In this document: piece after piece, positions 1,440-30,131 of the stretch | How the letters are laid out: every line of letters starts with the position of its first letter | Position numbering within the stretch: position 1 is the stretch's first letter | Assembly: GCA_046563655.1 (NCBI GenBank) | Contig: CM102285.1 | Coordinates: 1,364,001-1,428,000, forward strand | Length of the DNA stretch: 64,000 nucleotides | Origin: Yuukianura sp. NJ FZ-2021 | Taxonomy: Eukaryota | Reading direction: 5' to 3' | Notes under the pieces: model-generated | The model's input: only the letters and a program-made list of their open reading frames with translations | Told to the model about the DNA's origin: nothing | Database searches by the model: none | Program-made: the position numbers and the translations under genes

Positions 1440-3202
1440 TCAAATGATGACGAGTTCAGAGTTTGCACGGCCGTATTTGTCACGATGTGCGTAGAACAAA
1501 TCTGTGAGTGCAGTTATGTACTTGGTATGAACTTCGTCAATATATTCTTGACTTGGATTGGCTTGTAGCTCCACAGGAATTGGTGCACCCACTGCAAAAT
1601 GGAATTTTTGAATATGATTTTCAAAATTTTGATTAAATTTTTGAAAAATCTTACCGACTGAAGTAATTGGACACCGTCTGGGAAGAATTCCAAACGAATA
1701 CTGAAAAATTCCTCTGCCTAAAACCAAAATTGGCGCTGGCCCGAATAGATCTACGCATTTATCCTGGAAATTCCTTAGCCAAGAGCCTTTCGGATTCTCC
1801 GGTTGAGAGTAAATGTCGGTTTCACCAAAACTGTAAATTGGTACTAGTGGCGCTCTGAAATTCAAAATTTTAAATTTTGAAAATGGCGGGAAATTTTGGA
1901 ATTTTCAAGTTTCAAGTTTCGTTTCTTTTTGTACCCATTTTGAATAGCGACCTTGATAAATCCTTTTCGCTTCTTCAAGTAAACAACGTCCGTTCCGGGA
2001 GATGAGTACAGTGCTAAAAAAATAATGTTACAAAATTTAGTTTAAAGAATTGTTAAAAATATTTAGGTAAAAATATTTAAGTAAAAAAAGGTTTTGGTAA
2101 GTTTTTGGAAAACGTTTTATAAAACTGCTTAAAAATTGCAGTTACTAACCTTCACGAGCTCCTCCAGGCACAATTACCACGCCGTTTCCAACACCGTTTT
2201 TACTCAGCAGAAAGTTCATACTTTCCCGCGATACGGAACATCCACCTACAAATATTGAAATTCAAACAGTTTTGAAAATTCTGTAAGTCAAAATTTTGTT
2301 TTGGACTTTGAGTTTATGAAAAATGATACCGCATGCTAGCACGACATCACGAAATCCGGGAATTCTGAAATTTCCGTCAAGCGTCAGAAACTTCATTTTA
2401 ATTCCAGGAAAAACTTGACTGACATTTGTGCCCTCGGAACCAAAATTTCCATGCAGACCTTCACGTTTTACACAAACTTAAAATCTCAAAAATTTCAAAA
2501 ATTTCGACAACTTTTTAGAAAAACGTTTTCCTCACCGGAACTGAACATTCCATGGGGGTGGTATGCCATTAAGTAGTTTCTGGATGGATCCAGTTCTGCC
2601 GTTTTCACTAACCGAATTGGAAAGTAATTGCAGTACCATTTCCACAGTTTGGAGTAGCGCCAGAAGTCAGAACTTCAAAAAACAATGTTTCGAAATTTTT
2701 CAAAAAAGTTCAAAATTTTGAAAATGTGTTATACCTTCGTCCCCCAAGTCTCCCAATGTTTCTATCGTAAATCAGCCAAGTGATGTAGGCAAGTCCGAAA
2801 TACCAATAAGTGGTGTACAGTAGAACGTAAATGAGCAGTAATGGACCAAGAACAGGAAATGACCAGAGGAACAGCCACGACGCAGTGCCAAACTGGAATT
2901 AGTTGTAATAATTATTATAATAACTAAATTAATAATTATTATAATAACTATAAATATAGATTTAGTTAAATTATACAAATTCTTTCTTAGTACCGTTTGC
3001 AAGCGCCTTGACCATGGAATCCAAAGCGGAGCAAATTCAATCAATCTAAAAAGTATACGAAAAAAATTTTTAGACCATCGTAAATTTCCGAACATCAATC
3101 TCGAAAAATAAAAACTGCAAAAGCAAAGATGATGAAAAAGTAAAAAAAAAAAAATAACTACCGTTTCCGCTGTAAGCACTGCTTAGTTTCAGTTTCACAC
3201 AT
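1440..3202 (-). CDS. DGAT2/MOGAT-family acyltransferase (multi-exon)
   Basis: Spliced exons give [40 protein letters not shown] (HPHG catalytic motif), [42 protein letters not shown]; stop 1440-1442. Confidence 0.88.
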
Positions 3203-4453: not shown

Positions 4454-5602
4454 AATAGCCTAATGCTCGAAAAAAATCGACATTAAAACTGACAAAATTG
4501 TCGAATTTTTGGAAGAATTGTTGTTACTTTTTTTTTTCAAAATTTGGTCTACTTCATTTAAACTTCTTTGTGTCAAAGGCAAACCATGGTCAAGTAATAT
4601 GAAAATAAAAGTTCAAACAAATACTTCTGCTCTACATTATTATTTTTTAATAAATTAATTGTTTAGTTTAATTAACGTCATAAATTTGGAAGCATAACGT
4701 TTTGGGAAAGACGTTTTGTATTTGTTTTTATGATGCGTCAGCAAGAACTAAATGGTAAGTGATCAAAGTCACGTTGCAATCATGTCTATAACACTCACTA
4801 ATCCTAATTAGTGACGAAATTGTATGACGCAATTTTTCGCAAAAGTTGTCAATTTTGTTTTTCCAAATTTTAATCTGTGAACCAATTTTGCAAGTGACCT
4901 GAGTTTTCAGTGACGTTATTAAATTTGTTTAGAAATACAATTTATAAAATTATAACAAATTCCAGAAACACATTTCCAACGTCAATTATATTTTATAGCT
5001 AGTACTAAGAATTTTTGCGTTACACTTTATAAATGATACATGTATGTTACATTACTAAAGATGATCTTAACTTGCTATTAAGTGATTAGGTTTACAAATT
5101 GATTAACGGTAATTATACGTTTACTCTACGTTGCAAAAAGTTGAAAACAAAAAATAACGCATCATTGGCTTGAAATTATCAGAGAATGAATGAAACGTTT
5201 GCGTTTCGTATTTGGGGGGATAGCAAATTTTTGCACAAATTTCTGCTAACGTTTAGCGCAAACTTTGCCCAACGTCATTCAACAAAAGTGTGTTGAGTGT
5301 GTGTTACGTGTTACACGAACCGACAAAAAAAAAGAAAGTTGACGCATTTCATTTCTTTTTCAATTGAAATTTTTCATCTGCTTGAGGTTTTTTGCTAATT
5401 TGGCTAATTAGGTACTAATTGCTAAATTTTCCAATTTACTACTCTAATAAATCAGTTTTTTAACCTTTCATTCAATTTGAAAACGTTTGAACAATAAGGT
5501 CCAATTGTAATAACCGATCCGAACAGTAAAGTAATTAATTTTTGCTAAATTCGGCCGTCAATTGGAAATTGGAATTTAACTTGAAACTCAATTACAAATA
5601 CA

Positions 5603-8600
5603 ATGGGTATTCCGAAGTTCTATCGTTGGATATCCGAACGATATCCATGTCTGAGCGAGAAAATACGAGAATATCAAGTAAGTAATGAATTTTTAAAGTT
5701 ACTGGTAGCAGCATATCAATGAAGCAAATGATGATTGTCATGATTTCGTTTTTTTTTGCAGATTCCGGAATTTGATAATTTGTACTTGGATATGAATGGG
5801 ATAATTCACTCTTGCTCTCATCCAAATGACGAAGATATCCACTTACGAATTCCGGAGAAGAATATCTTCAGCGACATTTTTCAGTACATTGACTTCTTGT
5901 TCAAAATGATCAAACCGAGGCGAACTTTCTTTATGGCCGTTGACGGTGTCGCACCCAGAGCCAAAATGAATCAAGTACACCACTTAAAATGAATGAATAG
6001 AACTAAATATAGTTTACTGAATGTAGTCAATGTTTCAATTGTGTTGATTAGCAACGTGGTAGGAGATTTCGATCTGCAAAATTGGCAGAAGAGCAAGAAG
6101 CAGAGGCCCTTAGAAAAGGAGAAGCCCTTCCCAGCGAAGAACGTTTCGACAGTAATTGTATCACTCCAGGAACTGAATTTATGGCTAGACTTCACGAGCA
6201 ACTTCAATTCTTCACTAAAGTCAAGGTGTCTACGGATCCACTTTGGCAGCGGAAAGGTCTCACGATTATTCTTTCTGGTCACGATGTTCCTGGCGAAGGA
6301 GAACATAAAATCATGGACTACATTCGACACATTCGGTCCAAAAAGGATTACGATCCGGACACTCGTCACTGTCTATATGGTTTAGATGCAGATTTGATCA
6401 TGCTTGGCCTTTCTACTCATGAGCTTAGGTTTTCGCTGCTCAGGTAAGTTTTTTGCTGAACTACTAACAGCTTCTGATGACGACGAACAGTGTATTCTAA
6501 CCATTATCTAGCTCCACTTTCACGATTACTAATTAACTTTATGTCATTTCAGGGAGGAAGTAAAGTTCTCAAGACCAAAAAAGAAGAAGGAAGGTAGAAA
6601 GAGACCGGGCCAGAAGAATTACGATCCGACAAAACTGATTCAGTTCGTTCCCGCCGGTAGTGTCGTCGTCAATCACGAAACCAACGGCAACATTTCGTAC
6701 GCCGCTGCAGTCCAAACACCACCAGCTCCACAGCCTTGCATTGATTCTCCGTCCTCGTCAGCTGTTGAATCGCCTAAAAAAAATTCAAACCCAATTCAAT
6801 TTACACGTGAAGATGAGGGGGCCAAGGGCACATACCGAGCTCCACTCCCTGAGAAAACTACGTTTCTACTGCTACACTTATCCCTTCTACGTGATTATAT
6901 CGACGAAGAATTCCAAGGGCTCAGGACAGCTCTCGAGGGCCATCCAAAAGTCAAATATGATCTTGAAAAAGTAATCGACGACTGGATCCTTCTGAGCATT
7001 TTAGTTGGAAACGACTTTGTTCCACATCTTCCCATGCTGCATATCGTTCGTGGTGCGTTTCCAATGTTATACAATACGTACATGGCCCTTCTGCCTAAAC
7101 TGGACGGCTACATCAATGAAAACGGGACGTTACATCTCGGCCGACTGGAAGTTTTTCTCCAAACTCTTTCCAGTTTTGACTTGGAAGTGTTTCGTGAAAC
7201 TTATGACGATATGAAGTACATGGAGTCCAAAACTGGAAGGAAGATTGTCCTTGGAGATAAAATGTTTGGTCCAGTAGTTTCTGGAGGGAGTGAAGAAGAT
7301 GAAGGAGAGGAAGAAATTACTTCATCCGACCTTAAGGCTCTGATAGCAAGAACCGAAGTAGAACTGGGACTTGATTCGGGAAATGCCACTGCAGCAGAAT
7401 TTTATGTCCCAAAGGGGTACTTTGACCCACAAGATTCAAACGAATTCAGGCTGGAATTCCTTCAATATAAAAGGAACTATTACATGGAGAAGATGGGAAT
7501 GGACGTTGTTACGAAGGAGAGTATTCGCGGCATGTCAGAAGAGTATGTTAGAGCCCTTCAGTGGGTACTTAGCTACTACTACAAAGGAGTGTCATCTTGG
7601 GGCTGGTTTTACCCGCATCACTATGGTCCATTCTGCTCAGACATCCATCATCTGGAATCGTTTAACATGGAATTTGAGAAAGGTCAACCATTCAAACCGT
7701 TTGAACAACTTCTCGGAGTTTTACCATCACAAAGTGGAAAACTTCTTCCAAAATGCTTTTACGTGAGTGATTTTGGCCAAAAATTGTGGCTGGGTATATC
7801 AACCATTTAACCAACAGCTGATTTGCACGAACCACCAGCACCACCTAACATATGTACTAACCTTAACTAAAAGTTTAGTTGGTTGGTTATTATAATCTTA
7901 AGTTCTTTAGTTCCACTTGAATGATGAAGAATTAATGTTGATTTTGTTTTGATTTGATGTTGTGTAGGATCTGATGATCAATGCTGAATCTCCAATTCTG
8001 GACTTCTATCCGAAAGAATTCGAGAACGATTTGAATGGAAAACGAAACGATTGGGAAGCTGTCGTTCTAATTCCATTTATAGACGAGAATCGACTTCTCA
8101 CAGCAATGAAGCAGAAGATGACCCTGACCGAGGAAGAAGCGCACCGAAATGCCCGTGGCCGCATGCACACCTACTGGTAACAACTACTTACTAGGACCAG
8201 CTTACTAAAATTTTAATTTATCGTTTAGTTTGTTAGGAAGAAAGATAGGATTCACTAAATGACTAATTCTTTCACGCATTTATCAGGTATAGTCCAAAGG
8301 ATGGCAGTGAGATACGATCGCTCGGTGACATGTTTCTGCCGCTACCGGTTTCCCATGTATCGGAAGAGCTGACTTACGACGTCCTTTATGACAAAACTTT
8401 ACTTCCAAAAGGTCTCCATCCGATGGCCAAAAGAGACAAAATCTATCAAGGATTTCCAACTTTGAAATCTATCAAACATACTGTAATTTTTCATCAATTG
8501 ATCACTGTATCTTTTCAAGTTTGTTTAAAACTGGCTACAAGTTGACGTTTTGTGCGTTTCGAATCATTTCAGAGCAAATTGGACCGAGCCGAGATCAAAG

Positions 8601-11308
8601 TATTTGACTTTGTCACAAAAGAAGAGTCAATGGTCATCACTCTTACACAGGGCCAACCAGATCCAGCCCGAGTACTTGCCAAACAACTACTTGGAAAGTA
8701 TGTTTGGGTCAATTGGCCTCACTTGACCTCTGCTGTTGTCATGGGTGTGTCTGACAACAAAGAGAAATACTACCTCGCATATCATAATCGTCATGGAGAT
8801 CCAGTCATTTGCAAAGGTCAGTTAATCACTCAAACGCCTTCATCATGTTACATGTCTCGAAATTTCCCGCGGAAAGAATTGTCGAAGGATAAGCATCTTA
8901 AATGTTATATTATGTTATAGATGACCGCTATAACCCCAGAATGCACTCCAGCATAGTCGAAACGTTGGTGGAACGACATCTGATGTACAAGGGAATCCAT
9001 CTCGGTGAAGTTCCAGTCCTTATTTGGGCAAAAACTATGGAGGGACGGCGTATCTATTGCGGCCAAACTGGAGAAGTAAGAGTCGAACGACAGTGGAGTC
9101 GCAACGAACAACCGTTTGCACTTCGAACAACTTTGTATCATAAAGCGCAATCTCAATCTGTCCAGGAGACATTCATGCTGGATCGACATCTACCAGCAGC
9201 ATTCATAGACCTATTTACTCCAAATGACTTGGTAGTTTGCATCGGTGGAAAATACTTTGGATCTGTTGGAATCGTTGAGTCAATCAACCGAAAATTTGTA
9301 TCCGTGTCTGTAAATTTGGACAGAAGTGGGACATTTGAAGAGAATTTGGGACGGTCCCTGGGAGAAGGAATACTCAAGAGCAGAGTTTACTACACTTCGG
9401 CTGAAGTGTCATCCAGGTTCCAAATTCCTGGATTGGCAATTGCTAAGCTCACTGGGACAGTGTACTTGGCAGCACCTACTGCTGGAGCACCTAAAGCATC
9501 TCCGACTAAAGGGAAAGGAAGGAAGAAAAAGGAGTCGGAGTGTGATCCACAGGAAGACAAAACTTGGAAGGAAAATATCGGTTTGAATTTGAAATTTAAC
9601 AAGAGGAACTTGGAAGTTCGCGGGTACACAAGGAGATGCGATAATCAGTGGTTATACTCTAGAAAAACCGTGGATGTGCTTCTTGGTAAAGCTGAGATTA
9701 CTTAAAAATTAATCATTTTTATAAAATTTTGACTAATTACGTTTTTTTTACGATGTTTCAAACAGAGTACTGTGAGAAATTTCCAGAAGTGGTCCGATTT
9801 TTTAGCGGAATGGAACAAAATGGATCTGAGCATCGCGATAGTTTTGCAGCCGAAGAATTTTTTCCGAATGACACACAGAAGCGACTGGATTCGTTGCTTG
9901 ACTGGATTGACGAAAAGGGACTCAAGCACCTTCCACGAATTCCCATCAATTCAAAAGTGCTGGATGATGAAGATGTGCTGGCAGTATGGAAGCACGTAGG
10001 GGAACAGAAGTCCACGGTGGCCAATGCCAAGATAACTGTGTCCGTTCCTGCCCATGAGTTGCATAAGGTACAAACTCGCTTGCATATGAGAATACTTTTT
10101 AAAAACGAAAAAAAAAGTTGTTGTTTTTTGTTTGTTTCTTTTATGTTTTTTTTATACTAAAGTTATTGTGCTTGTTTCAGCCTGGAATCAACCGAGGATG
10201 TGTTGGAGCGGGAGAGACTGGAGTTGAATTTGAAGTTCTGGATCGAGTAGTTTGTATTGATCCAAGTGGACCAATCTCAATTGGACAGCGTGGTACAGTC
10301 GTTGGACTCCAGAATCCAGTTGACGAAGAACGGCAAGAAGAAGAAGCCTTCCGATCCACTTCAGCGACAGTGCTCAAGACGATCATTGTTCTTCCAGATC
10401 CAACTTATGTGCCACCGCAAGTCATAAAAGGAAGAGGCAAGGGGATGAAGGGAAAAGAAGAAGACATGCGACGTGGTCTGATCTCTCTGTTGAATATTAA
10501 GGTTGACAAGGAAGTGATACCCAGCGACGGTCCGAAACTTCTCAGTTTTTACCCGTTTCAACTCCTAAACATTTCGGACTATCAGAGAAAAAACCCATTT
10601 GTGATGGAGAAACAACCGGAACGACAGTTCGTATTTCCACGGTCTCCCGCCGCCATTCATGTACGACCTCAAGCTCAAATAGACATGGGTGTATCCAGAA
10701 GTTATATGGAACCACTGCATCGAAGCCAAGAACCGTATCGAGGTCACGTACCGTTGCCGGACCGAAAACCGGTACGAGGTGGAGAACCGTTTCAAGTGCC
10801 GTTGCCGGGTCAAAACCCATTTCGAACTCAGGCACCTCATAAGAGTGAGGCACCGTTACTGGCTCAAAACCCGTTTCACTTACTGTTGCGAAGTCAAAAA
10901 CCGGTTCCAGGTCAAGTACACGTACTGGTTCGCGGCCAAGCACCGACACGAGGGCAAGCACCGTTTCCGGTTCAAGAACCGCCGCCAGTACAAGTGCCAA
11001 TACCTCCGGTTTCAAGTAAAGTACCTCCGATTCCAGCAAAAACACTATCAGCTGATGCTCCATCGTTTACTCCTCGCGCTTCAGTAGCGCCATTCCAACC
11101 TCAGGTACCGTTTTCTGAAATAACAAATTCAACTCAGGTACCGAATTTCGCTGGGGTACCGAAACCACTTACGTCTCCACTAATACCGACGCAGCACCAA
11201 AACGGTACTGCTAATACTTCGCCACCGAAACCAGCGAAGAAGCCACTTACACCTAAGAGAATGGCAGCAAATTTTGCACAGCCGCCGCCACGCCCTCTTC
11301 GTCAATAA
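5603..11308 (+). CDS. XRN1: 5'-3' exoribonuclease 1 (multi-exon)
   Basis: MGIPKFYRWISERYP, FDNLYLDMNGIIH, AVDGVAPRAKMNQQRGRRFRSA, FDSNCITPGTEFM, VPGEGEHKIM, HCLYGLDADLIMLGL, GNDFVPHLP, SWGWFYPHHYGP, KPFEQLLGVLP. C-terminal NIGLNLKF and FEVLDRVV segments are typical of XRN1 rather than XRN2. Confidence 0.93.
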
Positions 11309-12421
11309 AAATCGAAATCGTTTTCAAAATGAAGAACCAATTTTACTTCTCAGGGCAAGTTAGTTAGACTTGTTTAAAATTTTTAAGTAAAGTAAGGATT
11401 GGTTTTACTAATACAGAAATAATTAATTTGTAGAGTATTCTAAAATTTACTAATTCGGTTTTCGCGCGAATTTTCAGTTTAACAAAATGATATTATGTAA
11501 ATAATGTTATCTAAGAAGGAAAACTGAATGTTTGTAGCGCGTACATTAATTTGTGGTAGAGTAAATCAAAATTTCATAAGTTCTTGTTCAAAAGTTGGTG
11601 AATTCCAAAGTTCCAAATTACATCGAAAAAGAAAATATACGCTACCAAATTATGTTTTGTTTCTGGATGAAATTTGGAAATTTTGAATTCAACAAATTTT
11701 GCTTTTTTTTTCTTGTGTATGATAACTTGTTAATCACACAGGTCAAAGTGTAAACCAACAAAAATTCCAGTACGTGGAATTGTATTTCCAGTTTTGGAAT
11801 TTGACGTTTTGGAAAATCCCACCAGATTTTGAGCACTTCAAAAAACTGATGTTATCGTACGAGTCTCATGATGGGAATACTCTCATGACTTTCAAAATTT
11901 TGAAACTCATTTTCAGGAAGAGGAATTTTTATGGTGCCACTCAAGTTCGGACTTTATTCCCACTTTGGACTTTGGCGTTTCCACTGGACGTAATGTGCTG
12001 TTCATGTTTGTTTCGACTAATCAAATTTCGTTTTTCATCCCACATGATTCTATTTTGTTGTTGTACTTTGTTCTCATGTTCTCAAATTTTAAAAATTTTG
12101 AACTATAAAAACATCACATTGTACTTCAAACATGTTTCTGGGTCAGAACTCGAATCAATTGTATCAATACTTGCTATTTGGAGTACACAGAAAAAAGATA
12201 AAAAGTCAAAAAACGGCTTGAGATTTAAAAATTATCAAAATTTTACAACAAAAATTTAGCAACTTTTCGAGATAAAACTTCACTTTTGTTCTGGAAGTTG
12301 AGAAGCGATCGCTTTTTTTTTTGTTCTGGAGAGACAAAATTTGAAATGTAAGTGACAAACTCATCTTAAACTTTATTGGCCTTTTTTCTTCAAATTTTGA
12401 TTTTTTTTTAGAATTTTGAAA

Positions 12422-15412
12422 ATGGATCCCGCCAAATCCGCTTTACCAGCCGGAGGTCAAGCTCAACCGACTCAAACGGTCTTGGAACTGTTCGAATCGA
12501 ACGTCCGCACCAAACCGGACGCAGTGGCCGTCCGAGATGCTTCGGGAAATTACACTTACGGTGAAATCGGCGCACGCGTGAACCAAATTGCTTCAAAAAT
12601 TACCGCCAGTTCGGATCCGGTAAAACCGAACCCCTACGTAGCCATTTTACTTCCGCAAGGTTCGAATTTCATCTCGTCACTTTACGGTATTTGGAAGTCC
12701 GGTCTCGGCGCAGGACCAATCGATATCGGAAACTCCGTGACTCAAATCGGTTTCATTTTGGAAGAACTCGGAAATCCGATACTGCTCACTTCAAGTCAAT
12801 ACTTGAACAAAGTTCAGGACTACTGCAATGTCATTTTGGTCGGAGAAGGTCACAAGGTCACATATTGTGGCCAATCAGAGGTCAAGCTCATTCGGAAGGC
12901 AACTGCGGGAGACATAGCCTTTGTTGTGTTCACTTCAGGATCAACTGGACGACCCAAAGGAGTTCTCATTCCACATCGCATTGTTTGGTTCAATGCAAAT
13001 TCAGCGTGGAGTTTAAGAGAAGTATCGGCCAAAGATGTGTCGTTGGCATACAGTAGTCCGGCATTCATTTTGAGTTTTTCTGAATACGTACCGCTCTTGT
13101 GTCGCGGCGGTGTCGTTGTTGTTCCGAATACCGATCTACGAACCGACTTGGACGCTCTGCACCAATTCATTAACGAACACGGCATTACTTTGATTTCCAT
13201 GACGACGCAAGCGGCCGTGAAGATGATCGAAAAACCGATGCCGAGTTTAAGATGGCTCAGATTCGGCGGAGAGAAACTTACGGTACCGATACCGAACAAT
13301 ACGACATTCAGAATGATCTATGTTTACGGTTTGAGCGAATGTTTTGCCATCAGTATTCGCATGACTTTTGACGAACCGGGAATCCCCAACAACGGACCAC
13401 TTGTACCGGGAGTTTCGGTTGTCTTTTTAGACGAAGATTTGAAACCGGTACCGGAGGGGGAGAAAGGCGAAATTTGTGTGTGGAGTCCGTTGGTGTTTAT
13501 GGGGTATTTGAACAATCCGGAACTCACGTATCAGCGATTCATCCCAAATCCGAACAATCCGGACCAAATTTTGTTCCGAACCGGCGACATTGGCTACTTG
13601 ACTCCAAATAAAGAATTAGTCGTTTGCGGTCGTGCAGATTTCCAAGTCAAAATCATGGGAAACCGGATTGAACTCGGCCAAGTCGAATTTGCTCTACAGC
13701 AACATCCGAAAATCCGACAAGCTGCGGCAATTGTCGTCGAAAACAACGAAACGAAACGACTCGTCGCATTTTGCACTCCGGTAGAAGGTGAAACCATTCC
13801 GGATTTGAATACCGTCTGCGATTTTCTTGAAGATCACCTACCGAGATTTGCATTCCCGAGCCAAATCAACAGCATTGACAAGATCCCCATGACAACGAGC
13901 GGGAAATTTGATCGTCAAGCACTCAAGGCCATCAAGGTAACGAAGCTAATTGAACCGGTACAAACCGAAACCGAAACAAATCTGGCGAGAATTTGGGCCG
14001 AAACGCTCCGAATTCCGGTCGAAGAAATCGGACGAAACGATACATTTTTCAGTCTCGGCGGAAACTCACTTCAACTGGCTCTGATTGTGACAAAACTTCA
14101 AGGAGATCCGTGGTTTCTTCAAATTCAAATCAAACAACTTTTTAAAGCTTCGCGGTTAGACAAATTTGCGGCACTGGTTGATTCGCTGATGGGCAAAAAA
14201 GGGGCGGAGCAAACCGGGAATCCCGATCAGCTGACTGAAGCCGACTTCGATAAAGACTCAGCTTTGGATGAAACATTTCCGAAAGAATTCAAGGCATTTC
14301 CTACAGGAAATGAAAACATTTTGGTTACAGGAACGACGGGTTATGTTGGCGCCAATTTTTTCAAAACTTTGATCGACCAAAGCACGGATTCTCAGAAGAT
14401 TTACTGCTTGATTCGTGCAAAATCAAACGCAGACGCGAAGGCACGACTGGAACTGACGCTGAAAAAGTACGGAATTGAAATGCCGACTTCTGAGAAGACG
14501 CTGGAACGAGTCATTTGCATTGCTGGAGACATTTCGAAACATCAATTTGGAATGAGCAACAGCGATTTCAGCGCCCTCTGCACTCAAATTGACGTCATTT
14601 TTCACATGGCGGCAGAAGTTCACTTTTTAAAATCTTATTCGGAGTTACGCGAAAGCAACGTCGGTGGAACTCGGAAGTTGCTTGACTTTGCCGTCCAATC
14701 AAAACTGAAGGTTTTGCATTACATTTCAACGTTTTCGGTTGTTGGCGGGCTAAATTCAACTGAAGAAATTTTGGAATCACGTGACCCCATTTTCAAAATC
14801 AAAGAAGCCGAGAGCCGTGACATGGGCTATGCACAGAGCAAGCGCATCGGAGAGAAATTAGTTTGGCATGCAATTGAACGCGGATTTCCAGCAGTTGTTT
14901 ACCGCCTAGGAGAAATTGGCGCCCATTCAACTTTGAATATTGTCAACAAACAGGATTTTTTGGCGCGTCTTTTTATCACTTGCAAAGAAACTGGCTTTCA
15001 TCCAATGATGGACAAATCTTTTCCGTACGGTTCAGTTGATTCAACATGTGAATCGATTCTAGAAGTTGCCAAACAGGGACAGAAAAATAGCGGAAAATGT
15101 TTCCATATTTTTGAAAATCAAATTTCGTATTTGGATGGATTTCGGGCCCTTAAGAACGTTGTTGGACTGGAGAGGATTGATTGGGCCAAGAAAATTGCGG
15201 GAATTATTCAAAGTCATTCGGATATGACTCAACAACAAGACTACAGCATTCTGCTTCAACTCATTCAAAATATGGGTGGTTCTTCGTCGGTTTTAGAAAA
15301 GAAATTTTCAAATGAAAATTTGAAAAATGTGGTTTCTGGAGCAGCCATGAGTTTCAATCCAAACCAAAATTGGGATCGCTATTTGAGTGTACTTTTTGAT
15401 GGACAAAATTAA
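12422..15412 (+). CDS. NRPS-like A-T-R enzyme (adenylation, PCP, terminal NAD(P)H reductase; carboxylic acid reductase/Lys2-like architecture), ~996 aa, intronless CDS
   Basis: A-domain cores FTSGSTGRPKG, YGLSE, GEICVWSPLVFMGYLN, FRTGD, GRADFQVKIMGNRIELGQVE, SGKFDR; PCP FFSLGGNSL (Ser codon 14066-14068); R domain ILVTGTTGYVG, HMAAEV, NVGGT, GYAQSK (YxxxK), YRLG. Confidence 0.95.
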   Translation: MDPAKSALPAGGQAQPTQTVLELFESNVRTKPDAVAVRDASGNYTYGEIGARVNQIASKITASSDPVKPNPYVAILLPQGSNFISSLYGIWKSGLGAGPIDIGNSVTQIGFILEELGNPILLTSSQYLNKVQDYCNVILVGEGHKVTYCGQSEVKLIRKATAGDIAFVVFTSGSTGRPKGVLIPHRIVWFNANSAWSLREVSAKDVSLAYSSPAFILSFSEYVPLLCRGGVVVVPNTDLRTDLDALHQFINEHGITLISMTTQAAVKMIEKPMPSLRWLRFGGEKLTVPIPNNTTFRMIYVYGLSECFAISIRMTFDEPGIPNNGPLVPGVSVVFLDEDLKPVPEGEKGEICVWSPLVFMGYLNNPELTYQRFIPNPNNPDQILFRTGDIGYLTPNKELVVCGRADFQVKIMGNRIELGQVEFALQQHPKIRQAAAIVVENNETKRLVAFCTPVEGETIPDLNTVCDFLEDHLPRFAFPSQINSIDKIPMTTSGKFDRQALKAIKVTKLIEPVQTETETNLARIWAETLRIPVEEIGRNDTFFSLGGNSLQLALIVTKLQGDPWFLQIQIKQLFKASRLDKFAALVDSLMGKKGAEQTGNPDQLTEADFDKDSALDETFPKEFKAFPTGNENILVTGTTGYVGANFFKTLIDQSTDSQKIYCLIRAKSNADAKARLELTLKKYGIEMPTSEKTLERVICIAGDISKHQFGMSNSDFSALCTQIDVIFHMAAEVHFLKSYSELRESNVGGTRKLLDFAVQSKLKVLHYISTFSVVGGLNSTEEILESRDPIFKIKEAESRDMGYAQSKRIGEKLVWHAIERGFPAVVYRLGEIGAHSTLNIVNKQDFLARLFITCKETGFHPMMDKSFPYGSVDSTCESILEVAKQGQKNSGKCFHIFENQISYLDGFRALKNVVGLERIDWAKKIAGIIQSHSDMTQQQDYSILLQLIQNMGGSSSVLEKKFSNENLKNVVSGAAMSFNPNQNWDRYLSVLFDGQN

Positions 15413-16028
15413 AAATGTGAAAAAAAAATGAAAATTTGAAAATTTATATACAAAGGTTACCGCCTATGCGGTAACATATATGTATGTTACCTCTGTTTTG
15501 GTTGTAAATAAAAACGAGCTCCTTCGTGCATATTTTAAAGCAATTAATTAGTATTATGCCTTTAACAGCTACGTCAGATTAAATTTATTTTTCCCATTAA
15601 CTACCTTTATACTTTTATTCTGCAATGATATTTTTTACATTTTTGTGAAACGTTTGTATCAGCAACTACATAAGTCGAAGAACTCACAGTTTTCCTACAT
15701 ACCCGTAAAGTTAAAATTTCAAAAATACAAATCAAACATCAAAAATCGGGATTCAGAAAAACCTTGTTTGAAGCAAGGCGGAACGCTGGGCAACCATTAA
15801 ACTAAACTTAAAATGGTTGTACAATTTTCAGTATTTTACTTTCCTAAAAAAAAGCATGCTGCACGTGCTTTTTCACATTTTTTTAGCCTGGAGCATATTT
15901 CGACACTTTTGCGATCAAAACTAAAATTCTCAAATTTGACTCAAGTTTCCTTCTGTTGCAGACAAAATTTATTTCATGTTTTACAAAGTGCTGCAAAATT
16001 CTTCTTTTAAAAATTGAAATGATGAAAT

Positions 16029-16599
16029 TTAGTTGGTTTCCTTGCGCTGCAAAAACTCCAGCCAAGCAGTCATCTCTTGCACGTCAACCTGCATTCCAAA
16101 AAAATAGATTTTAGAAAGCATTCTTGTAACCTAAACTACCAAAAAAAGTGAAAATCGAAAATTTTACATCTCCTGAGCGATTCGTGTCCGCCTCGCGCTC
16201 AAAATCGTCGAACGTTTTTCCCGCCATTTTGGGATACTGCGTGGACATCAGTTCATAAACTCTCTCAAATTCTTCTTTGCTAATAATCCCATCTCCGTTT
16301 GTATCGCACATTTTGGCGTACCAAGCAGCTTCAAGTGCTGGTGAATGCAAAATAGGCAGAATCTGTTCGAACCAAGCAAGTTTGCAGCGTGAGTCAAAGT
16401 GTTTCACAAAGTAGTCGATGTACCCTTGCTGTTGTGCTTCTGAGCGCTCGAATCCCAGGATTTCAAATGCTGCCTTTGCATCAACTGTATGAATCGAATC
16501 TGTTTCCGGATCGTAGGACTCTAGCGTCTTCAGTTTTGCTAAAATTTTCAAAATTTCTTCTTCTGTGTACGGAATAGACATGTCACGGAACGATTCCAT
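16029..16599 (-). CDS. Calmodulin-like EF-hand protein, copy 1 (163 aa; exons 16599-16168, 16088-16029)
   Basis: EF loops DTNGDGIISKEE and DTNRSGD|VDVQE, the latter completed by splicing; family N-terminus MESFRDMSIPYTEEE. Confidence 0.88.
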
Positions 16600-17049: not shown

Positions 17050-17526
17050 TCATTTGGAAAGTGATTCAAGCCATGCAGCCATTTCTTGCAAATCGACGTC
17101 TCCCGAATGATCAGTGTCCGCTTCACGAACAAAATCTTCGTAGGATTTTCCCGCTACTTTTGGCCACTGCACTGACATCAGTTCGTAAACTTGTTTGAAC
17201 TCTTCGGCTGAAATGAGGCCATCTCCATTTGCGTCACACATTTTTGCGTACCATGCTGCATGAAGAGGTAAAGAATGCTTGGCACGCATAAGTCCATCCA
17301 TCCACTCCACTTTGACAATTCCATAGTGCTTGGCATAGTAGTTTTCATATGCTTTGATTTGCTCTTCCGTTCGTTTGTCCCCAAATGCGATAGTGACTTC
17401 CCGGCAATTGGAAGGGGCGATACTGTCCGTTGCTGGATCGTAAGTCGGAAAAGTTCGGATTTTTGCCAGAATTTTGGCAATTTCCTCCTCCGTATATGGA
17501 ATAGACATGTCACGAAAGTTTTCCAT
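17050..17526 (-). CDS. EF-hand protein, copy 2 (158 aa, no coding intron)
   Basis: DANGDGLISAEE and DTDHSGDVDLQE loops in a single ORF. Confidence 0.9.
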   Translation of the reverse strand: MENFRDMSIPYTEEEIAKILAKIRTFPTYDPATDSIAPSNCREVTIAFGDKRTEEQIKAYENYYAKHYGIVKVEWMDGLMRAKHSLPLHAAWYAKMCDANGDGLISAEEFKQVYELMSVQWPKVAGKSYEDFVREADTDHSGDVDLQEMAAWLESLSK

Positions 17527-18537
17527 GGTTTGAAAACGTTGTAAACTCTGTGTGTAAAAAAATAACGTAAAAGTCAGTTTTTGGTTTACAAAAAAGTGAT
17601 TCTTTTTAATAAACTGAATTATTTACCTGAACACTCAACGCCAGAAAATTCGTCAGAAGTGTTTAGAAACTTTTGTTTTTTTAAAGATTTCTAACTTCTG
17701 AATTGTGAGCGAATGGTACTTGAAATGTGACAAAGTGATGGAAAATTTCGGAATTTATGCAAAATTTTGGGCGTAAAATTTTTAAATAGGTTGATTGAAA
17801 ACTGGTTTCTAATTTTATTGATACTAAAATTTTATATATGGATCATAAACTTTGGGTTACTTAATTAAAATATTTGATTAATGACGCTTTATTAGTGCTT
17901 AGATGTCTCATTTGAATGTGTATACCATGTGTACAGGGCGATTCCATTATTTTTTAAATTATGTTGCAGCTCAACAAAATAAAACTTTGTAGGTCAGTAC
18001 GTCTGATGAAGGTGCAAAATTTTGTGGGATTGCTTTTGCTTGTTCAGTGTGAAAGATGACTAAATACGCTTCAAAAACTATTATGACACTGTTAGTTTTA
18101 CGACCCATCAACTTATTCTGTGTCGATGAATTGCCGACTAGAGAAACCTATTAACTTACTTTTTGAAAATCAAAAACCTGTTTACAATTAAGAAGTTTAA
18201 ACTTAACTACTAAAGTTTTAAATAAAACTACAATTAAAACGACAAAATTAGCACGTTGTGATTTTGTGGAAGACCAAATACGTTGCCGTTTGCGTTGTGG
18301 GGCCAAAACGTCGCAACAGTGTAGTACAAATGTGAAATTGAAGCAGAACTTGAAATTTTTAAAATTCAAATTTTTCAAACTTGTATTTCCTAAACCCTTT
18401 ATTCAAACCAACCAATCCGAGCACTTCGTGAAATAAGAGATTCGGCTTAATAATGTTATTTACGACTCTCCTGGACATACATTTTAGCAAAGTTATAGTT
18501 TTAGTGGACGATTATGAATATTTAACACTGCATGTCA

Positions 18538-21500
18538 TTACTGTCTTGCTTTAATAACAACGTTGTACGGAGCCGGTTCTAGAGAAATTGTGACAACAAC
18601 TTTGTCAGACGGAACTCCGAAAGCTGGATCCACGTGGAAACTGAATTGCTGAACCAAAGTTGCTATTAACAGCATCAAGTTCGTTTTTGCAAGAGACTCC
18701 GCTATACACCGTCGCTTCCCTAATAAACCAAAATATGTCAACACACAACTTTGAGACTTTTTTTTTCAAGTGTTGAAACTAAATGTCACTAATAGTGCTT
18801 CAAGTTCGGGCCAAAAATGAAAAGTTCGAACTTCGAACCTAGGTTCGAACTTTCTGAAGAGCAAGTTCGAACTTTCGAACCTTTTTTTTACATGCAAAAA
18901 GCAAAGGGCAGTGAAAAAAATGGTGAGGGTGATAAATTTCGCAATTCACATCCAAATTGCATTTCCCCCCTGTATTTGAATTTTTTTCAAAAACTAACGT
19001 AGAACAGTAGGTTTAAAGTGAACTGAAACTACTTTCTCAGGCAATATGCCTCGGTTTTTGTTGAAATCCATGCATTGTTGAATATTTGCCAATATTGACG
19101 GGTAAGTTCGAACTCTTTTGGCTGAGGTTCGAACTTCGAACCTAGGAAAACAGCCAGGTTCGAGTTCGGAAGTTCGAACTCTAAAGTTCGAACTTGAAGC
19201 ACTAGTCACTAATCACCAAATCCGAAAGTAAATATTTTCTCGGCGTTGATGATTTTGTTTTCCGGAGAAAGAAATCTGTTGGGATTGAACTTCTGTGCGT
19301 TCTTCCAAACCGATTCGTCTCTATTAATTCCAAAGAGGTTCACGGCAATGAATGTGCCCTGCATTTAAAAAAAAATGTCATTTCAGTAAAATCTTTTTAA
19401 AACTTTCACTTTTTTGGAAGTATCTTTTACCTTGGGAATTAAGAAACCGTTGACCTCCCAGTCGCTCAATAACTTCCTTGGAGCAATAGGCCCAGGAGTA
19501 TTCAACCTAAAGTAAATTTTATGTATTAGTTAATAATTAATATATAATTATGATAGTAATTTATCTAATATTCTTGTATTGAATTTGCTGGTAAAATTAA
19601 AAAACTTGATTGATACTGACCTAAGCACTTCGTAGACAACTGCTTGGGTCTTAATCAGCCTGTTAGATGTAGTTATTAAAATGGTAAAATATGTATTATA
19701 TAAAGTAAGATTCAAAATATTTTTTATGATTTAAAATAAACTGTTGCTATACTGAATAATGAACATTCCGGTGTTCAACGGTAAAATACATATACTGGAA
19801 ACGTTAGTTTCCGGGATTATTTCAGGCAGATAGATAGACACAAGGTGGATAACGAAAGAAATACTTTTTCTTTAGCTTCTTTCAAGGTTAAAGGAAAACC
19901 TTGTTTGAAACGTTGAAATAGCAACCATGGATTAGACAAACGGACAGACCGCTAGGATCAACCCATTAGAGAGCTTTGCCTACTTATTTCATAATTTAAC
20001 GCTAGTTTTTAAGTTTACTTGGGTATGTCATCTACGTTGACGTGTCGAAATTTTCCAAGAACTTGATCAACTTCTGCGAAAAACTCATTCTGTGTTTGTG
20101 GGTTTTGCAGTAGGTAGCGAATAAAAAAATTCATGACATTCACTTCCGTGTCAATCCCACCAATGATGAGGTCCTGCATAACTGCTACCAAGTTCTGTTC
20201 TGATTTGCAGAAGTACAAATTCTTACAAAATTTGAAATTCCAAGTTTTGAAATTTTCAAATTTAGAGACAAATAGCAAACGAATGAAATGTGATATGGTC
20301 AGTATTTACCAGTGTAAATTGTATCCAAAGGATTTTCTGTTGCTTTTGTAGCATCTATTTTTGCTAAAAATGCGTCCAGAAAGTTGTCAGGTTCCACATC
20401 ATAATTTCTATTCTTGCGATGATGTGCGATAGCATCCTTAAACAGATCAGAATTTTGTGCGCAAATGATTTTTTAAATTTTGAACTTTATATGAAATATT
20501 TTACCCTCATGAGTTGCCGCCATCGTTCACAAGACTTCTTATGCCCAGTGTAACCCGTGACATTTGGAAACATTTTGATTAGGTTCGGGAAAACAATAGC
20601 CAAACCTCCGCCAAGTGTGCTGGACTTGGCAAATTCTAGGACGACGTTAATGACATTTTTTCGAAAAGAAGCGTCGTCTGCAGTAGTACATTTTCTCCCC
20701 GTAATCAAAGTCCAAACGATGTTATAGAATATCCTTGTAAACTGAGTTTCCATTTTGACACAAAGTTGACCATTTGACATGCGTCGTTTAAGTTCGTCAC
20801 AAAAGTCAACAATTTCCTCCAGAATTATCACCTCTGTCTTGTAATTGGAATGAAATCCAAACTTGTGCAATGTTTTTTGAACCATCAAACGAGTTTTCTC
20901 CCAAAATCCAGGCAAACTGAACCCAATTCCTAAAATTTCCAACCATAGTTTACATATTATTAATAGCACAGAAATAAATCGTTTCTGAATTCAGATTGAA
21001 ATTATTACCAATTGGAAGTTGATCACTTTTTTCAAGCATCCAAATATCGTCGGTGTCTCCATGGGACAACAACTTAGCTGAGAATTCTACACTAGATAGA
21101 AATTCATGGCCATTCACAACCACTGAAACAAAATTTTCAATGTTTTTTAAATTTAATTTCACACAGTTGAAAAAAAATCTTATGGTTTTTCATCTAACAC
21201 ATCGTAGTTGGTCCAACTTTAAGACGGAAGATTGGTCCATACGCTTTACTCAGCTTCATAAAAGCTTGCACAGGATTGTGAAAGTCAGCCCAAAGTACAG
21301 AAATAATCGACCCAATTAACGGTATCTCAATAGGACCTGTTCAATATATTAATATATTTAATTTTATTTCAATTAATAGATATGTACCGTAAATCCTCTA
21401 ATGCAAGCGCGCGCTTATAAGAATTTTTCCAGTTTTGAGACGCGCTTCTATTAGAGTGACGTTTTAATACTGGAATAAATAAAAACTCTGAATTATTTAT

Positions 21501-23137: not shown

Positions 23138-25927
23138 TTACCGGACGATTGGATAATAAGAATATTTAAAATTGTATTTCATTGTTGCCTTGAGTTGATA
23201 ACTACGTTGTACGGGGCGGGTTCTGCACTTAAGTGTGACAACAACCTTGTCCGAGGGAACTCCAAACGCTGGATCCACCTGGAAACTGAATTGCTGAACC
23301 AAAGTTGCTATCAACAGCATCAAGTTCGTTTTTACAAGAGACTCTCCTATACATCGCCTCTTCCCTGAAATAAAATTTCAATAAAAAAACAAAGTGTCAA
23401 CATTTTTTCTTCAAAGTTTGAAATTGAACGTCATCCTTTAAAATACCGAATCCAAAAGTAAATATTTTCTCGTAGTTGATGATTCTGTTTTCCGGAGAAA
23501 GAAATCTGTTGGGATTGAACTTCTCTGCGTCCTTCCAAACCGATTCATCTCTATTAATTCCAAAGAGGTTGACGGCAATAAATGTGCCCTACATTTGAAA
23601 AAAAAAGTTCAATAAAGTATTTTCAAAACATTCACTTTTTTGGAAGTGTCTCTGACCTTGGGAATTAAGAAGCCGTTGACCTCCCAGTCACTCAACAACT
23701 TCCTCGGAGTAATAGGCACAGTTGTACTCAGCCTAAAGTAAGTTTGATATATAATGATAATATTTAATGATAATGATTAATTTAATTTGCTCGAATTGAA
23801 AATTGTTGATAAAATTAACACACTTGATAGATACTGACTGACCTCAGCACTTCATAGACAGCCGCTTGGGTCTGAATCAGCCTATGAAAAAGTTTTGAAA
23901 GCATAAAATATGTATAATATACACAACTAAAATAATAAATAGAAAAAATGTTAAAAATAAAAAAGAAGTGTATGAAAGTAGCGAAAGATGGTCGTTTGGA
24001 GGCTCTCACCCAAACACCAATGCTAACTACTGATATGTATCATGTGCTATGGTTATGAAAGTAAAATGAAAAAAAGTTGCCTTTTGACCTGGAAGGAGAT
24101 CAACTAGTGTCGCATGACGTACTGAAACGCTGCTGATATAGTTCACATGAGAAACGCTTGTATATAGGGCAATTTTAATATTACACGGGATGGAACCGGA
24201 GGACGCTGACCTTTGACCTCTGACCGTAAACGGTTGGCCATTGACTTACCAGAATGCTACTGAATAGTGAACGTTACCCAAGAAACGTCTACCGGTTTAT
24301 GAGATTATTTCATACAGACAGAGAGACTGACAGACAGACAGACAGATGAGGCAAAGCTTAAGATAGCTTTTGCTACTTAATGAATAATTTAACGCTAGGT
24401 TTACTTGGGTATGTCATCTACGTTGACCGGTCGTTTTCCAAGAACTTGGTCCACTTCTGCAAACAATTCATCCTGAGTTTGTGGATTTTGAAGAAGGTAG
24501 CGAACAAAAAAGTTCATGAAATTTGCTTCCGTGTCAACCCCACCAACGATGAGGTCCTGCATAACTGCCACCAAGTTCTCTTCTGATTTACAAAAGTAAA
24601 GTTTCACAAACTTTACCAGTTTTGAAATTTTGAAATGAGACAAACAGTAAACGAATGAAGTAGACTATTGAAATAAGTATTTACCAGTGTAAATTGTATC
24701 CAAAGGATTTTCATGTGGTTCTGTAGCATCTATTTTTGATAAAAATGCGTCTAGAAAGTTGTCAGGTTCTGCATCATAATTTCTATTCGTTCGATGATGA
24801 GCTGTAGCGTCCTTAAGCACATCAGATTTTGTGCTTCGTGTTTTCCTTTAAAGTTCAAATTTTTGTATTCCATTTTAAATATCTTACCCTCAGTAGTTGC
24901 CTCCATTGTTCACAACGCTGTTTATGCCTATTGTACCCGCAGAGATTTGGAAACATTTTGATTAATTTTGGGAAAACAATACCCAAACCTCCGCCAAATG
25001 TGCTGGACTTCACATATTCCATCACTGATTTAATGATGTTTTTCCGAAAAAGAGCGTCGTCTGAAGTACATTTTTCCCCCGTCATCAAAGTCCAAACGAT
25101 GTTGTAGAATATTTCAGTAAACTGAGTTTCAATTGTTAAGCAAAGTTGGCCATTTGTCATGCGCCGTTTAAGTGCATCACAAAACTCAACAATTTCCTCC
25201 AGAATTATGACCTCAGTCTTGTAATTGGAATGAAATCCAAAATCGTGCAAAGTTTTTTGAACCATCGGGCGAGTCTTGCTCCAAAATTCAGGCAAACTAA
25301 ACGCAATTCCTAAAAGTTTTAAACCCAATTTACATAACTTATTTTCTCATTTGTAAACTACTAAATGTTTTTCTGGATTATATTGTTACCAAGTGGAAGT
25401 TGAGCAGTTTTTTCAAGTACCCAGATATCCTCGGTATCCACATGAGACAGCAACTTATCCGAGAATTCTACGCTGGATATAAATTTATGCCCGTTCAGAA
25501 CCACTGAAACAGGATTTTGAATGATTTTTAGGTTCAATTTCACATAACTAAAAAGAAAGTGTCTCATTTTTAGTCTAACCCATCTTAGCAGGTCCAACTT
25601 TAATAGAGAAGATTGGTCCATATTTTTTGCTCAGCTCCATAAAAGCTTGCGAAGGATTGTGAAAGTCAGCCCAAAGAACCGAAACAATTGATCCAATAAA
25701 CGGTAGCTGAATAGGACCTGTTTATACAAATATGTTATATATTATATGCATATATGTATCATATATAGGACATGTGTACGAAATTTTATATAATTTATAT
25801 GTATTTTAACGGTAATAGTTTTTGCTAAATATTTACCTGGGGGCCATTTGTATTTGGATTTGTAGAAGGCATTCCGAAAAACGTACAACAACAGCAGAAA
25901 TAACAGGAATTGCACTGCATAAAGCAT
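23138..25927 (-). CDS. Cytochrome P450, copy B (tandem paralog; +1 frameshift in last exon)
   Basis: MLYAVQFLLFLLLLY, DLIVGGVDTE, YEVLR, FGFGKRRCIGE; same exon structure as copy A; paralog-frame stop at 23179-23181, frameshifted stop at 23138. Confidence 0.85.
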
Positions 25928-27953: not shown

Positions 27954-28544
27954 TCAAGTTTTCTTGCGTTGCAAAGACTCGAGCCAAGCAGTCATCTCTT
28001 GCACATCAACCTGAAACCTTTGAAACTTGAAACCTTTTTAGAAATAGATTCCAGAAACCAAAAATGACAGGAAAAATCAAAATTGAAAGGATGAAAATCG
28101 AAATTTTACATCTCCCGATCGATCCGAGTCTGCCTCGCGCTGAAAATCCTCGAACGTCTTTCCCGCCATTTTCGGATACTGAATGCACATCAGTTCATAA
28201 ATTCCCTCAAACTCTTCTTTGCTAATAACTCCATCTTCATTCGCATCACACATTTTTGCGTACAAAGCAGCTTCGAGTGCCGGTGAATGCAAAACGCGTA
28301 CGATTGGTTCCAAAGAAGCAACATGACAGCGTCCTTCTAAGTTTTTAACATAATAGTCAAGGTACGCTTGACGTTGTCCTTCTGACCGCTCGTATCCCAG
28401 CACTTGAAATGCTTCCAGTCCTTCTTGAACTGCGCTAAACGTATCACGTTCTGGATCGTACGATGATAACGTTCTGAATTTGTTTAAAATTTTGGCAACT
28501 TCTTCGTCTGTGTACGGAATCGACATATCACAAATCGATTCCAT
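27954..28544 (-). CDS. EF-hand protein, copy 3
   Basis: MESICDMSIPYTDEE; DANEDGVISKEE; DSDRSGD|VDVQE with the same intron as copy 1. Confidence 0.85.
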
Positions 28545-29564: not shown

Positions 29565-30131
29565 TCAAGTTTCCTTGCGTTGCAAAGACTCGAGCCAACC
29601 AGTCATCTCTTGCACATCAACCTAAAGTAAAAAAAAATGGCTTTTTAAAAAGGATTCCTGTAAATGACCACAAAAATGTGAAAATCAAAATTTTACATCT
29701 TCCGATCGATTCGTGTCCGCCTCACGCACAAAATCCTCGAAAGTTTTTCCCGCCATTTTCGGCCACTGCTGTGACATCAGTTCATAAACGTTCTCAAATT
29801 CCTCTTTGCTAATAACGCCATCTCCGTCCAAATCAAACATTTTTGCGTACCAAGCAGCTTCAAGTGCCGGTGAATGCAAACTGCGCACGAGCTGTTCCAA
29901 TGGACCAACAGGGCAGCGTCCGTTTAAGTTTTTAACGTAGTAGTCGATATAAACTTGCCGTTGTGCTTCTGAGCGCTCGTATCCCAGCACGTTAAATGCT
30001 TCATGTCCATCCTGCACTGCAGAAAACGAATCGCTTTTTGGATCGTAAGACGGGAACGATTTGAAGCCTGCTAAAACTTTGGCAACTTCTTCTTCTGTGT
30101 ACGGGATCGACATGTCACGAAACGATTCCAT
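29565..30131 (-). CDS. EF-hand protein, copy 4
   Basis: MESFRDMSIPYTEEE; DLDGDGVISKEE; DTNRSED|VDVQE. Confidence 0.87.

Follow-up and report, generated by a model that had tools for sequence, protein, structure and literature searches.

We describe a single-exon gene of Yuukianura sp. NJ FZ-2021 that encodes a stand-alone enzyme with the domain order adenylation (A), thiolation (T) and thioester reductase (R). The gene lies within a stretch of 64,000 nucleotides (GenBank assembly GCA_046563655.1, contig CM102285.1, forward-strand positions 1,364,001 to 1,428,000), which is referred to here as the window and to which all coordinates of the locus apply. Our favoured explanation, to which we assign a probability of about 0.6, is that the gene encodes a functional, host-integrated A-T-R enzyme of bacterial type that was acquired long ago from a bacterium by an ancestor of the springtail lineage. 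That the gene is a functional resident of this genome is the firmest part of this reading and is held with high confidence, while its bacterial origin by transfer, taken by itself, is likely. The host-like codon composition and host expression signals of the gene were most likely gained since the transfer.

A stand-alone A-T-R enzyme with an intact catalytic apparatus

The coding sequence (CDS) is one uninterrupted open reading frame (ORF) of 996 codons on the forward strand, running from an ATG at 12422 to a TAA at 15410-15412 with zero internal stops (Table 1). An in-frame stop at 12398-12400 lies 24 nt 5' of this ATG, which we take to be the start codon because the MDPA N-terminus that follows it is shared in the alignment with the closest homologue, P0001. 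Pfam domains fill the 996 residues as a single module, and no condensation (C) domain was found, PF00668 being without a match at E ≤ 0.01. The A domain retains the core motifs FTSGSTGRPKG (A3), FRTGD (A7), GRADFQVKIMGNRIELGQVE (A8) and SGKFDR with the A10 lysine K495. The R domain combines a Rossmann motif, GTTGYVG (GxxGxxG), with an S-Y-K triad formed by Ser769, Tyr803 and Lys807, and scores 229.8 bits against the NCBIfam thioester reductase model TIGR01746, above its cut-off of 213.35. In all 20 of the aligned rows the residues K495, S549, G637, T639, G640, G643, S769, Y803 and K807 are unchanged. An AlphaFold2 model of the protein has a mean predicted local distance difference test score of 81.1 and a predicted template modelling score of 0.50, with low confidence at the termini and linkers only. 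Its best folds in the PDB are modules of non-ribosomal peptide synthetases (NRPSs) comprising an A domain and a peptidyl carrier protein (PCP), LgrA (1.8e-47) and then EntF, and a sequence search against the PDB matched the MxaA R domain 4u7w at 1.6e-39. The initial annotation, made from the DNA letters, described an intronless NRPS-like gene at this position, a description supported by the open frame with its A, T and R domains.

Several known reductases share parts of this architecture. Lys2 (TIGR03443) and the bacterial carboxylic acid reductases (CAR, NF041592) have the same A-T-R order and reduce a carboxylate to an aldehyde. Both were rejected as identities for the gene product. The model for Lys2, an alpha-aminoadipate reductase, reaches 264.5 bits against a cut-off of 1030.1 and matches residues 382-874 only, and the CAR model reaches 161 bits against a cut-off of 1300 with its best stretch confined to residues 521-862. 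CAR differs further in that the A domain of the query is NRPS-type rather than CAR-type. The glycine betaine reductase ATRR of fungi and nematodes is described as carrying two consecutive R domains in the order A-T-R1-R2 (bioRxiv 10.1101/559534; PMC11050029). This identity was also rejected, as a single NAD_binding_4 region (PF07993, residues 635-877) is present in the 996 residues.

Relatives and phylogeny

A full-length search of 5.8 billion proteins returned two close homologues, P0001 (988 aa, 60% identity, 100% coverage) and P0002 (981 aa, 54% identity). Among the best 120 of the 5121 matches, the third falls to 31% identity over 59% of the query, no protein beyond P0001 and P0002 exceeds about 33% identity, and every row with a named organism is bacterial. 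A search with the R domain alone gave 29 matches, again including P0001 and P0002. The others are bacterial or unnamed at 25-37% identity (Xenococcus 32%, Nostocaceae 36-37%) together with four Phycomyces proteins at 26-27%, and none of the 29 carries a metazoan name. When one genome per prokaryote species was searched, the best full-length match was to an Actinomycetota metagenome-assembled genome (29% over residues 2-912), where it forms the terminal module of a larger NRPS. Of the 10 nearest ESM Atlas clusters listed, nine consist of stand-alone A-T-R proteins (922-1165 aa) that are 86-100% bacterial, and one is without recorded taxa. A search of representative sequences returned mostly multi-module giants in its best 150 rows, with P0002 alone informative.

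P0001 and P0002 are encoded as single open frames on two contigs of the same metagenome, L001 (6491 bp) and L002 (3647 bp). A metagenome scan with the single query protein found no relative; a scan with alignment A1 recovered both contigs. Two further loci from the latter scan, L003 and L004, were rejected as unrelated adenylate-forming proteins at 21-23% identity. The flanks of L001 and L002 have 32-40% GC, and about 1 kb upstream of the L001 gene is without a long ORF. Downstream of the homologue on L001, the ORFs at 4789-5202 and 5248-6138 match no Pfam family even at E ≤ 10. As these neighbours match no family, it is the AT-rich and ORF-poor flanks by which L001 and L002 look like animal contigs. 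The two downstream ORFs look membrane-embedded. A more distant relative, P0039 (1203 aa, 30-32% identical to the query), comes from a metagenome contig of 8356 bp and has an extra N-terminal region of about 260 residues for which no Pfam match was found.

A tree was built with IQ-TREE under LG+C20+F+G4 from 36 contiguous A-T-R regions and 995 columns. Its rows are the query and those 35 of 303 candidates for which a single phmmer stretch begins before residue 80 of the query and extends past residue 830. The query, P0001 and P0002 form a clade with support of 100/100, which P0039 joins at 100/100. This group joins P0397 and P0405 at 88/73, and the resulting assembly joins P0401 at 95/89. The cluster of P0397 includes a protein named by NCBI as that of a Phycisphaerales bacterium. 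The tree supports a distinct and old clade whose nearest identifiable kin are bacterial stand-alone A-T-R proteins. These bacterial proteins, both the Atlas clusters and the Phycisphaerales-type P0397 and P0424, share with the query its domain order, a similar length (967-1025 aa) and a complete R domain in which the S-Y-K triad is present. They differ in that the query resides in an animal genome, where its flanks and signals are eukaryotic, and has a distinct substrate pocket marked by FILS and Arg280.

The three close homologues (981-996 aa) are all open. Between pairs of them dN is 0.27-0.41 and synonymous sites have reached saturation, which makes a dN/dS ratio non-computable. Together with catalytic residues that are intact in all three genes, these values point to long purifying selection and an old split among them.

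The initial annotation had given the gene a microbial affinity, to be followed up by phylogeny. This affinity stands in so far as the named relatives outside the small clade of eukaryotic context are all bacterial or distantly fungal and the nearest identifiable kin are bacterial. The tree, which is unrooted and drawn without metazoan A-T-R proteins, identifies no donor and does not settle the direction of transfer.

An adenylation pocket without Asp235

In the HMMER alignment the query residues F215-I216-L217-S218 stand opposite F-D-G-S of LgrA, placing Ile216 at the position of Asp235 (PheA numbering), the residue that binds the alpha-amino group of the substrate. The A4 column reads F-D in 30 of the 36 tree rows. 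The remaining six rows are the query, P0001 and P0002 with FILS, P0039 with FLLS, and P0397 and P0405 with a three-residue deletion. The replacement of Asp235 by Ile is conserved in all three close members of the clade, and the lack of a canonical F-D is shared with the weakly supported sister group P0397 and P0405. The A domain scores 262.4 bits against the NCBIfam amino-acid adenylation model TIGR01733, below its cut-off of 317.4, and members of the query clade carry Tyr or Phe in place of the Asn of motif A5 (NxYGPTE). Arg280, directly before GGE, is present in 3 of 36 rows, which are the three close clade members. We take this residue to be a position of the substrate pocket and treat it as a lead only. 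The A4 residues of the query, I, L and S, are also set apart from those of ATRR, which are presumably aromatic.

According to Hai et al. (bioRxiv 10.1101/559534), aryl, keto or hydroxy acids are the substrates of most characterised A domains that lack an equivalent of Asp235. With Ile216 in place of Asp235, we therefore hold it somewhat more likely than not that the substrate is something other than an alpha-amino acid; it would be released as an aldehyde. A counterexample is described in the same source: ClbH-A2 activates S-adenosylmethionine, and loss of Asp235 is accordingly not a strict exclusion of an unusual amino acid (bioRxiv 10.1101/559534). It is unlikely that the gene product works as a peptide or amino-acid enzyme. 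The label NRPS-like, as used in the initial annotation, fits the architecture and does not extend to an amino-acid A domain, given the missing Asp235 and the TIGR01733 score under its cut-off.

A reaction sequence may be proposed on this basis. The A domain would activate a carboxylic acid other than an ordinary alpha-amino acid at the expense of ATP, and the acid would be loaded as a thioester onto the phosphopantetheine arm at Ser549 of the carrier. Attachment of this arm would fall to an AASDHPPT-type transferase of the animal itself; AASDHPPT is reported to be co-regulated with ACVS in Folsomia (PMC5200902). The C-terminal R domain, of the short-chain dehydrogenase/reductase type, would then use NAD(P)H to free the product as an aldehyde, which might be reduced further to an alcohol.

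A different outcome would follow if an enzyme of the same architecture activated an amino acid, with the resulting amino aldehyde condensing to pyrazines or piperazines, as with minimal A-T-R enzymes of bacteria and fungi. Minimal A-T-R enzymes that make pyrazines have been described (PMC7586950), the best PDB matches of the query are amino-acid-activating modules, and its best NCBIfam partial matches are the terminal modules of MxcG and AusA, both of which match in part only. These similarities have to be set against the pocket itself, where Ile stands in for Asp235 in all three orthologues and Leu does so in P0039, and where the A5 Asn is also lost to Tyr or Phe. TIGR01733 likewise stays under its cut-off. 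Activation of an amino acid is therefore regarded as improbable, and a non-amino-acid substrate is preferred.

Integration into springtail-like DNA

The gene is physically linked to native genes, with XRN1 on one side and EF-hand, cytochrome P450 and Rel-domain genes on the other, and with these neighbours it therefore sits in ordinary arthropod DNA. The upstream XRN1 gene has exons in 5750-11308, in at least eight coding pieces separated by introns of about 77-205 nt. A tblastn search with Orchesella XRN1 places 8 coding pieces within 5750-10576, the N-terminal exons being 84-87% identical. The 425-aa exon of this gene (6533-7810) finds its best matches in the springtails Orchesella cincta (59%) and Allacma fusca (57%), with insects next at 41-49%, and the host is judged springtail-like because its XRN1 is closest to those of Orchesella and Allacma. 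Since XRN1 is multi-exon, with a longest exon of about 1.2 kb and an intron roughly every 600 bp, a 3-kb exon is unusual beside it. A springtail-like host, genuine arthropod genes on both flanks (XRN1 and EF-hand genes) and an intronless CDS next to an intron-rich neighbour had all been put forward in the initial annotation and are borne out here.

In composition the gene resembles its host. The CDS has a GC content of 0.448 and a third-position GC content (GC3) of 0.45 compared with 0.439 and 0.419 for XRN1 exons. Its relative synonymous codon usage correlates with that of pooled host exons at r = 0.50, against r = -0.45 for actinobacterial relatives. The flanks of the gene are AT-rich and non-coding, with a GC of 0.30-0.31.

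Candidate signals for expression by the host are present at both ends of the gene, at the positions given in the initial annotation. A candidate intron of 64 nt opens with GTAAGT at 12348-12353 (GT at 12348-12349), closes with AG at 12410-12411 after a T9 run, and ends 10 nt before the ATG; donors in XRN1 are of the GTAAGT, GTGAGT or GTACAC type. The pattern GTAAGT-N35-65-TTTTTTAG (the T6AG form), which was defined post hoc with the site already seen, has one match on both strands of the window, this being the candidate intron itself. By chance 0.10 matches are expected per window, and at least one match occurred in 9 of 100 shuffles. Joining of 12347 to 12412 would remove the sole upstream ATG in 12200-12421, at 12346, and would leave the ATG at 12422 as the first in-frame ATG, with no in-frame ATG upstream before a stop is reached. 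The 64-nt interval would therefore fall in the 5' untranslated region (UTR). The homologous loci L001 and L002 each have a candidate GT...polypyrimidine-AG interval shortly 5' of the ATG, and a 5' UTR intron is plausible. At the 3' end, an AATAAA motif is found as a candidate polyadenylation signal (Table 1).

The stretch is present in five DNA runs (X1 to X5), of which four are from one sample, maybe the source of the window's assembly, and X5 is from another study. Contigs of X1 bridge the end of XRN1 into the spacer (11095-11575), the spacer, candidate intron and start codon with zero differences (12061-12480), and the 3' flank into the EF-hand gene (15496-16212). In X5, pieces of the CDS differ at 26/361, 34/558 and 21/594 letters, or about 93-96% identity, and the XRN1 flank at 22/552 letters, or 96% identity. 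As this divergence is similar in the CDS and in the XRN1 flank, the gene travels with its flanks in the second data set. Joints that skip the CDS (11907>15426, 11913>15414 and 12421>15426) were considered as a possible gene-less allele and rejected, their shorter sides being 20-29 letters of A/T-rich repeats.

Weighing the origin of the gene

An alternative to transfer is vertical inheritance, in which the gene would be a surviving member of an ancient A-T-R family of eukaryotes or metazoans that most animals have lost, with no transfer into the springtail lineage. Such a history would suit the 100/100 clade of the three closest sequences and P0039, with its long stem from all sampled bacteria, and a CDS whose composition is fully host-like. 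It would also find parallels in other animals, as the patchy occurrence of NRPSs across animals might, it is argued, stem from an early gain with subsequent losses (Suring et al. 2023, PMC10531068) and molluscs are reported to own a class of A-T-R enzymes, FmtATR (PMC11869996). No metazoan-named protein is found, however, either in the best 120 of the 5121 full-length matches or in the 29 R-domain matches, with Orchesella and Allacma both in the database. The intronless CDS is likewise at odds with the intron density of XRN1, and the nearest identifiable relatives are bacterial proteins of the same stand-alone architecture. Vertical descent is thus considered unlikely, and an ancient transfer from a bacterium is favoured.

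That the gene is a silent or decaying relic, a contaminant or an assembly chimera has very little to recommend it beyond two intervals left unbridged by the listed short contigs (11575-12061 and 15234-15496), set against a 996-codon ORF that is open, catalytic residues intact in three lineages with saturated synonymous sites, host genes on either side within one 64-kb window, AT-rich non-coding flanks, a host-like composition, and an independent run (X5) that carries gene and flanks at similar divergence.

Several points weigh against the reading of an old bacterial transfer into a springtail ancestor. The unrooted tree leaves out the metazoan A-T-R proteins Ebony, AASDH, mollusc FmtATR and ATRR as well as ascomycete A-T-R proteins, five of its rows including P0039 have long branches, and amino-acid composition is skewed in many rows. 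The P0397 and P0405-type proteins that link the clade to bacteria are 26-27% identical to the query, with sister support of 88/73. The protein searches were word-seeded and capped; in the full-length search 8000 candidates were scored, and its conclusions refer to the best 120 matches given above. P0001, P0002 and P0039 are known from metagenome contigs alone, and the family could be wider in eukaryotes. At the locus, the intron, the polyadenylation site and expression are read from sequence signals, the two unbridged intervals are covered by none of the listed short contigs, and the view of the genome is that of the 64-kb window.

Relation to other animal assembly-line enzymes

Springtails are reported to have acquired beta-lactam genes, including the NRPS ACVS, and to hold many polyketide synthase and NRPS clusters called by antiSMASH (PMC5490193; PMC10531068). 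An animal-wide survey also reports a second NRPS in Folsomia candida and groups a non-ACVS NRPS of Holacanthella with a Tetranychus sequence (PMC10531068). The present gene resembles the springtail ACVS/IPNS beta-lactam genes and the other springtail NRPSs in its host group and in being a microbe-like assembly-line gene linked to native genes, as described for those loci (PMC10531068; PMC5490193). It differs in architecture from springtail ACVS, which is described as a three-module NRPS with C domains, the query being one C-less module that ends in a reductase. Our full-text literature searches found no paper on springtail NRPS-like genes or on a carboxylic acid reductase of Collembola. Within the literature searched, the family is undescribed. 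A condensation domain is required by antiSMASH 4.1 to call an NRPS. The animal-wide survey, built on the detection of NRPS clusters, may have overlooked A-T-R genes without a C domain.

An animal parallel is the mollusc FmtATR of the bursatellin pathway, an animal-encoded A-T-R protein whose R domain reduces thioesters, whose closest non-animal homologues are reported to be bacterial and for which an ancient transfer has been proposed (PMC11869996). In contrast to the query, FmtATR is described as having an N-terminal formyltransferase (Fmt) domain, acting on tyrosine, containing animal introns and residing in a gene cluster (PMC11869996). The query is without an Fmt domain as judged by Pfam, without coding introns and without Asp235.

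The gene adds to the foreign-looking biosynthetic genes of springtails, and as this theme is established the finding is incremental rather than surprising. Animal-encoded assembly-line enzymes are nonetheless rare and mostly uncharacterised, and springtails are among the few groups known to keep and use acquired antibiotic genes. A more far-reaching and distinctly tentative proposal is that the sequences represent an ancient and hitherto undescribed clade of A-T-R carboxylate reductases encoded by animals, marked by the change of Asp235 to Ile or Leu and, in the three close members, by Arg280. Held under purifying selection in divergent springtail lineages, such enzymes might convert an acidic substrate other than an amino acid into a reactive aldehyde that serves the chemical defence of springtails or the chemistry of their cuticle. 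If so, candidate substrates would be aryl, keto or dicarboxylic acids, and the clade would give Collembola a second acquired route of secondary metabolism that does not depend on the beta-lactam genes. The enzyme is an easy target for expression, with one 3-kb ORF and one cofactor-loading step, and its unusual adenylation pocket makes the experiment worthwhile. The expressed protein would provide a direct test of whether springtails themselves make aldehyde-derived metabolites.

Flanking sequence and neighbouring genes

The two arms of an inverted repeat bracket the CDS exactly, the left arm lying just 5' of the ATG and the right arm beginning at the stop codon. None of 300 dinucleotide-shuffled versions of the flanks matched its 20/21 core, in a test that is inflated by the T9 and A9 runs and by the recurrent motif AAAATTTGAAA; homopolymer runs could account for a large part of the repeat. 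The inverted repeat was not found at L001, at L002 or at two control genes. The motif AAAATTTGAAA has seven copies in the window against 1.14 expected, at 12336, 15315, 15431, 20227, 27531, 43928 and 43956, three of the seven being at the NRPS-like locus. Two overlapping hairpins occupy 15456-15491 of the 3' UTR with a fold z-score of -2.3. The first (15456-15475) has an 8-bp GC-rich stem, and the second (15470-15491) is terminator-like with a T-rich tail after it. Around the gene, neither bacterial promoter-like sites (12 against 9.9±3.1 expected) nor bacterial terminator-like sites (9 against 5.1±2.5 expected) are enriched. At 11890-11907 and 12383-12409 many contigs of X1 to X5 stop or run into unrelated A-rich sequence, which suggests a dispersed low-complexity repeat in the spacer 5' of the gene.

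Table 1. Features of the A-T-R gene and of the surrounding window
Feature	Position	Strand	Evidence
Single-exon CDS, stand-alone A-T-R enzyme, 996 aa	12422..15412	+	ORF and Pfam domains
Adenylation domain core, aa 24-363	12491..13510	+	PF00501 (AMP-binding) 2.1e-55; contains A3 FTSGSTGRPKG and atypical A4 FILS
Ile216 at the Asp235 position, within A4 FILS	13067-13069	+	LgrA alignment; column check over 36 rows
Adenylation C-terminal subdomain, aa 421-495, catalytic Lys495 (SGKFDR)	13682..13906	+	PF13193 (AMP-binding_C) 1.4e-09
Carrier (PCP/T) domain, aa 521-561	13982..14104	+	PF00550 (PP-binding) 3.7e-08
Ser549 in FFSLGGNS, phosphopantetheine attachment site	14066-14068	+	Motif; invariant in 20/20 rows
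Thioester reductase (R) domain, aa 632-963	14315..15310	+	TIGR01746; PF07993 (NAD_binding_4) 2.7e-57, aa 635-877
Candidate 5' UTR intron, 64 nt, GTAAGT...T9AG	12348..12411	+	Sequence signal
AATAAA, candidate polyadenylation signal	15507..15512	+	Sequence read; 95 nt past the stop
Inverted repeat, left arm, 32 nt	12389..12420	.	84% complementary to right arm
Inverted repeat, right arm, 32 nt, begins at stop codon	15409..15440	.	84% complementary to left arm
DAGAT gene	1440-1901	-	Profile match
EF-hand gene downstream of the A-T-R gene	16111-16599	-	Pfam match
Further EF-hand ORFs	17050-17619, 28077-28703, 29685-30134, 31371-31901, 44574-45044, 46139-46678	-	EF-hand matches
Two cytochrome P450 exons	20487-20987, 24855-25343	-	P450 profile match
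Ty3/gypsy-like retroelement	36229-38372	-	Capsid-like and aspartyl-protease matches
Cysteine-rich single-exon ORF, hydrophobic signal-like N-terminus	42977-43891	+	GC 0.50, above its neighbours
Rel-homology exon, Dorsal/NF-kB-type gene, Gln/His-rich tail	55621-56574	-	Dimerisation domain 1.3e-24

Among the neighbouring genes, the cysteine-rich ORF has no match to a Pfam family even at E ≤ 10. The EF-hand ORFs, seven with that at 16111-16599, are scattered downstream of the A-T-R gene as an array of related calcium-binding genes. Both P450 exons match the same part of the profile, at about positions 86-206, which points to a pair of paralogous P450 genes at a distance of 5-10 kb from the reductase gene.

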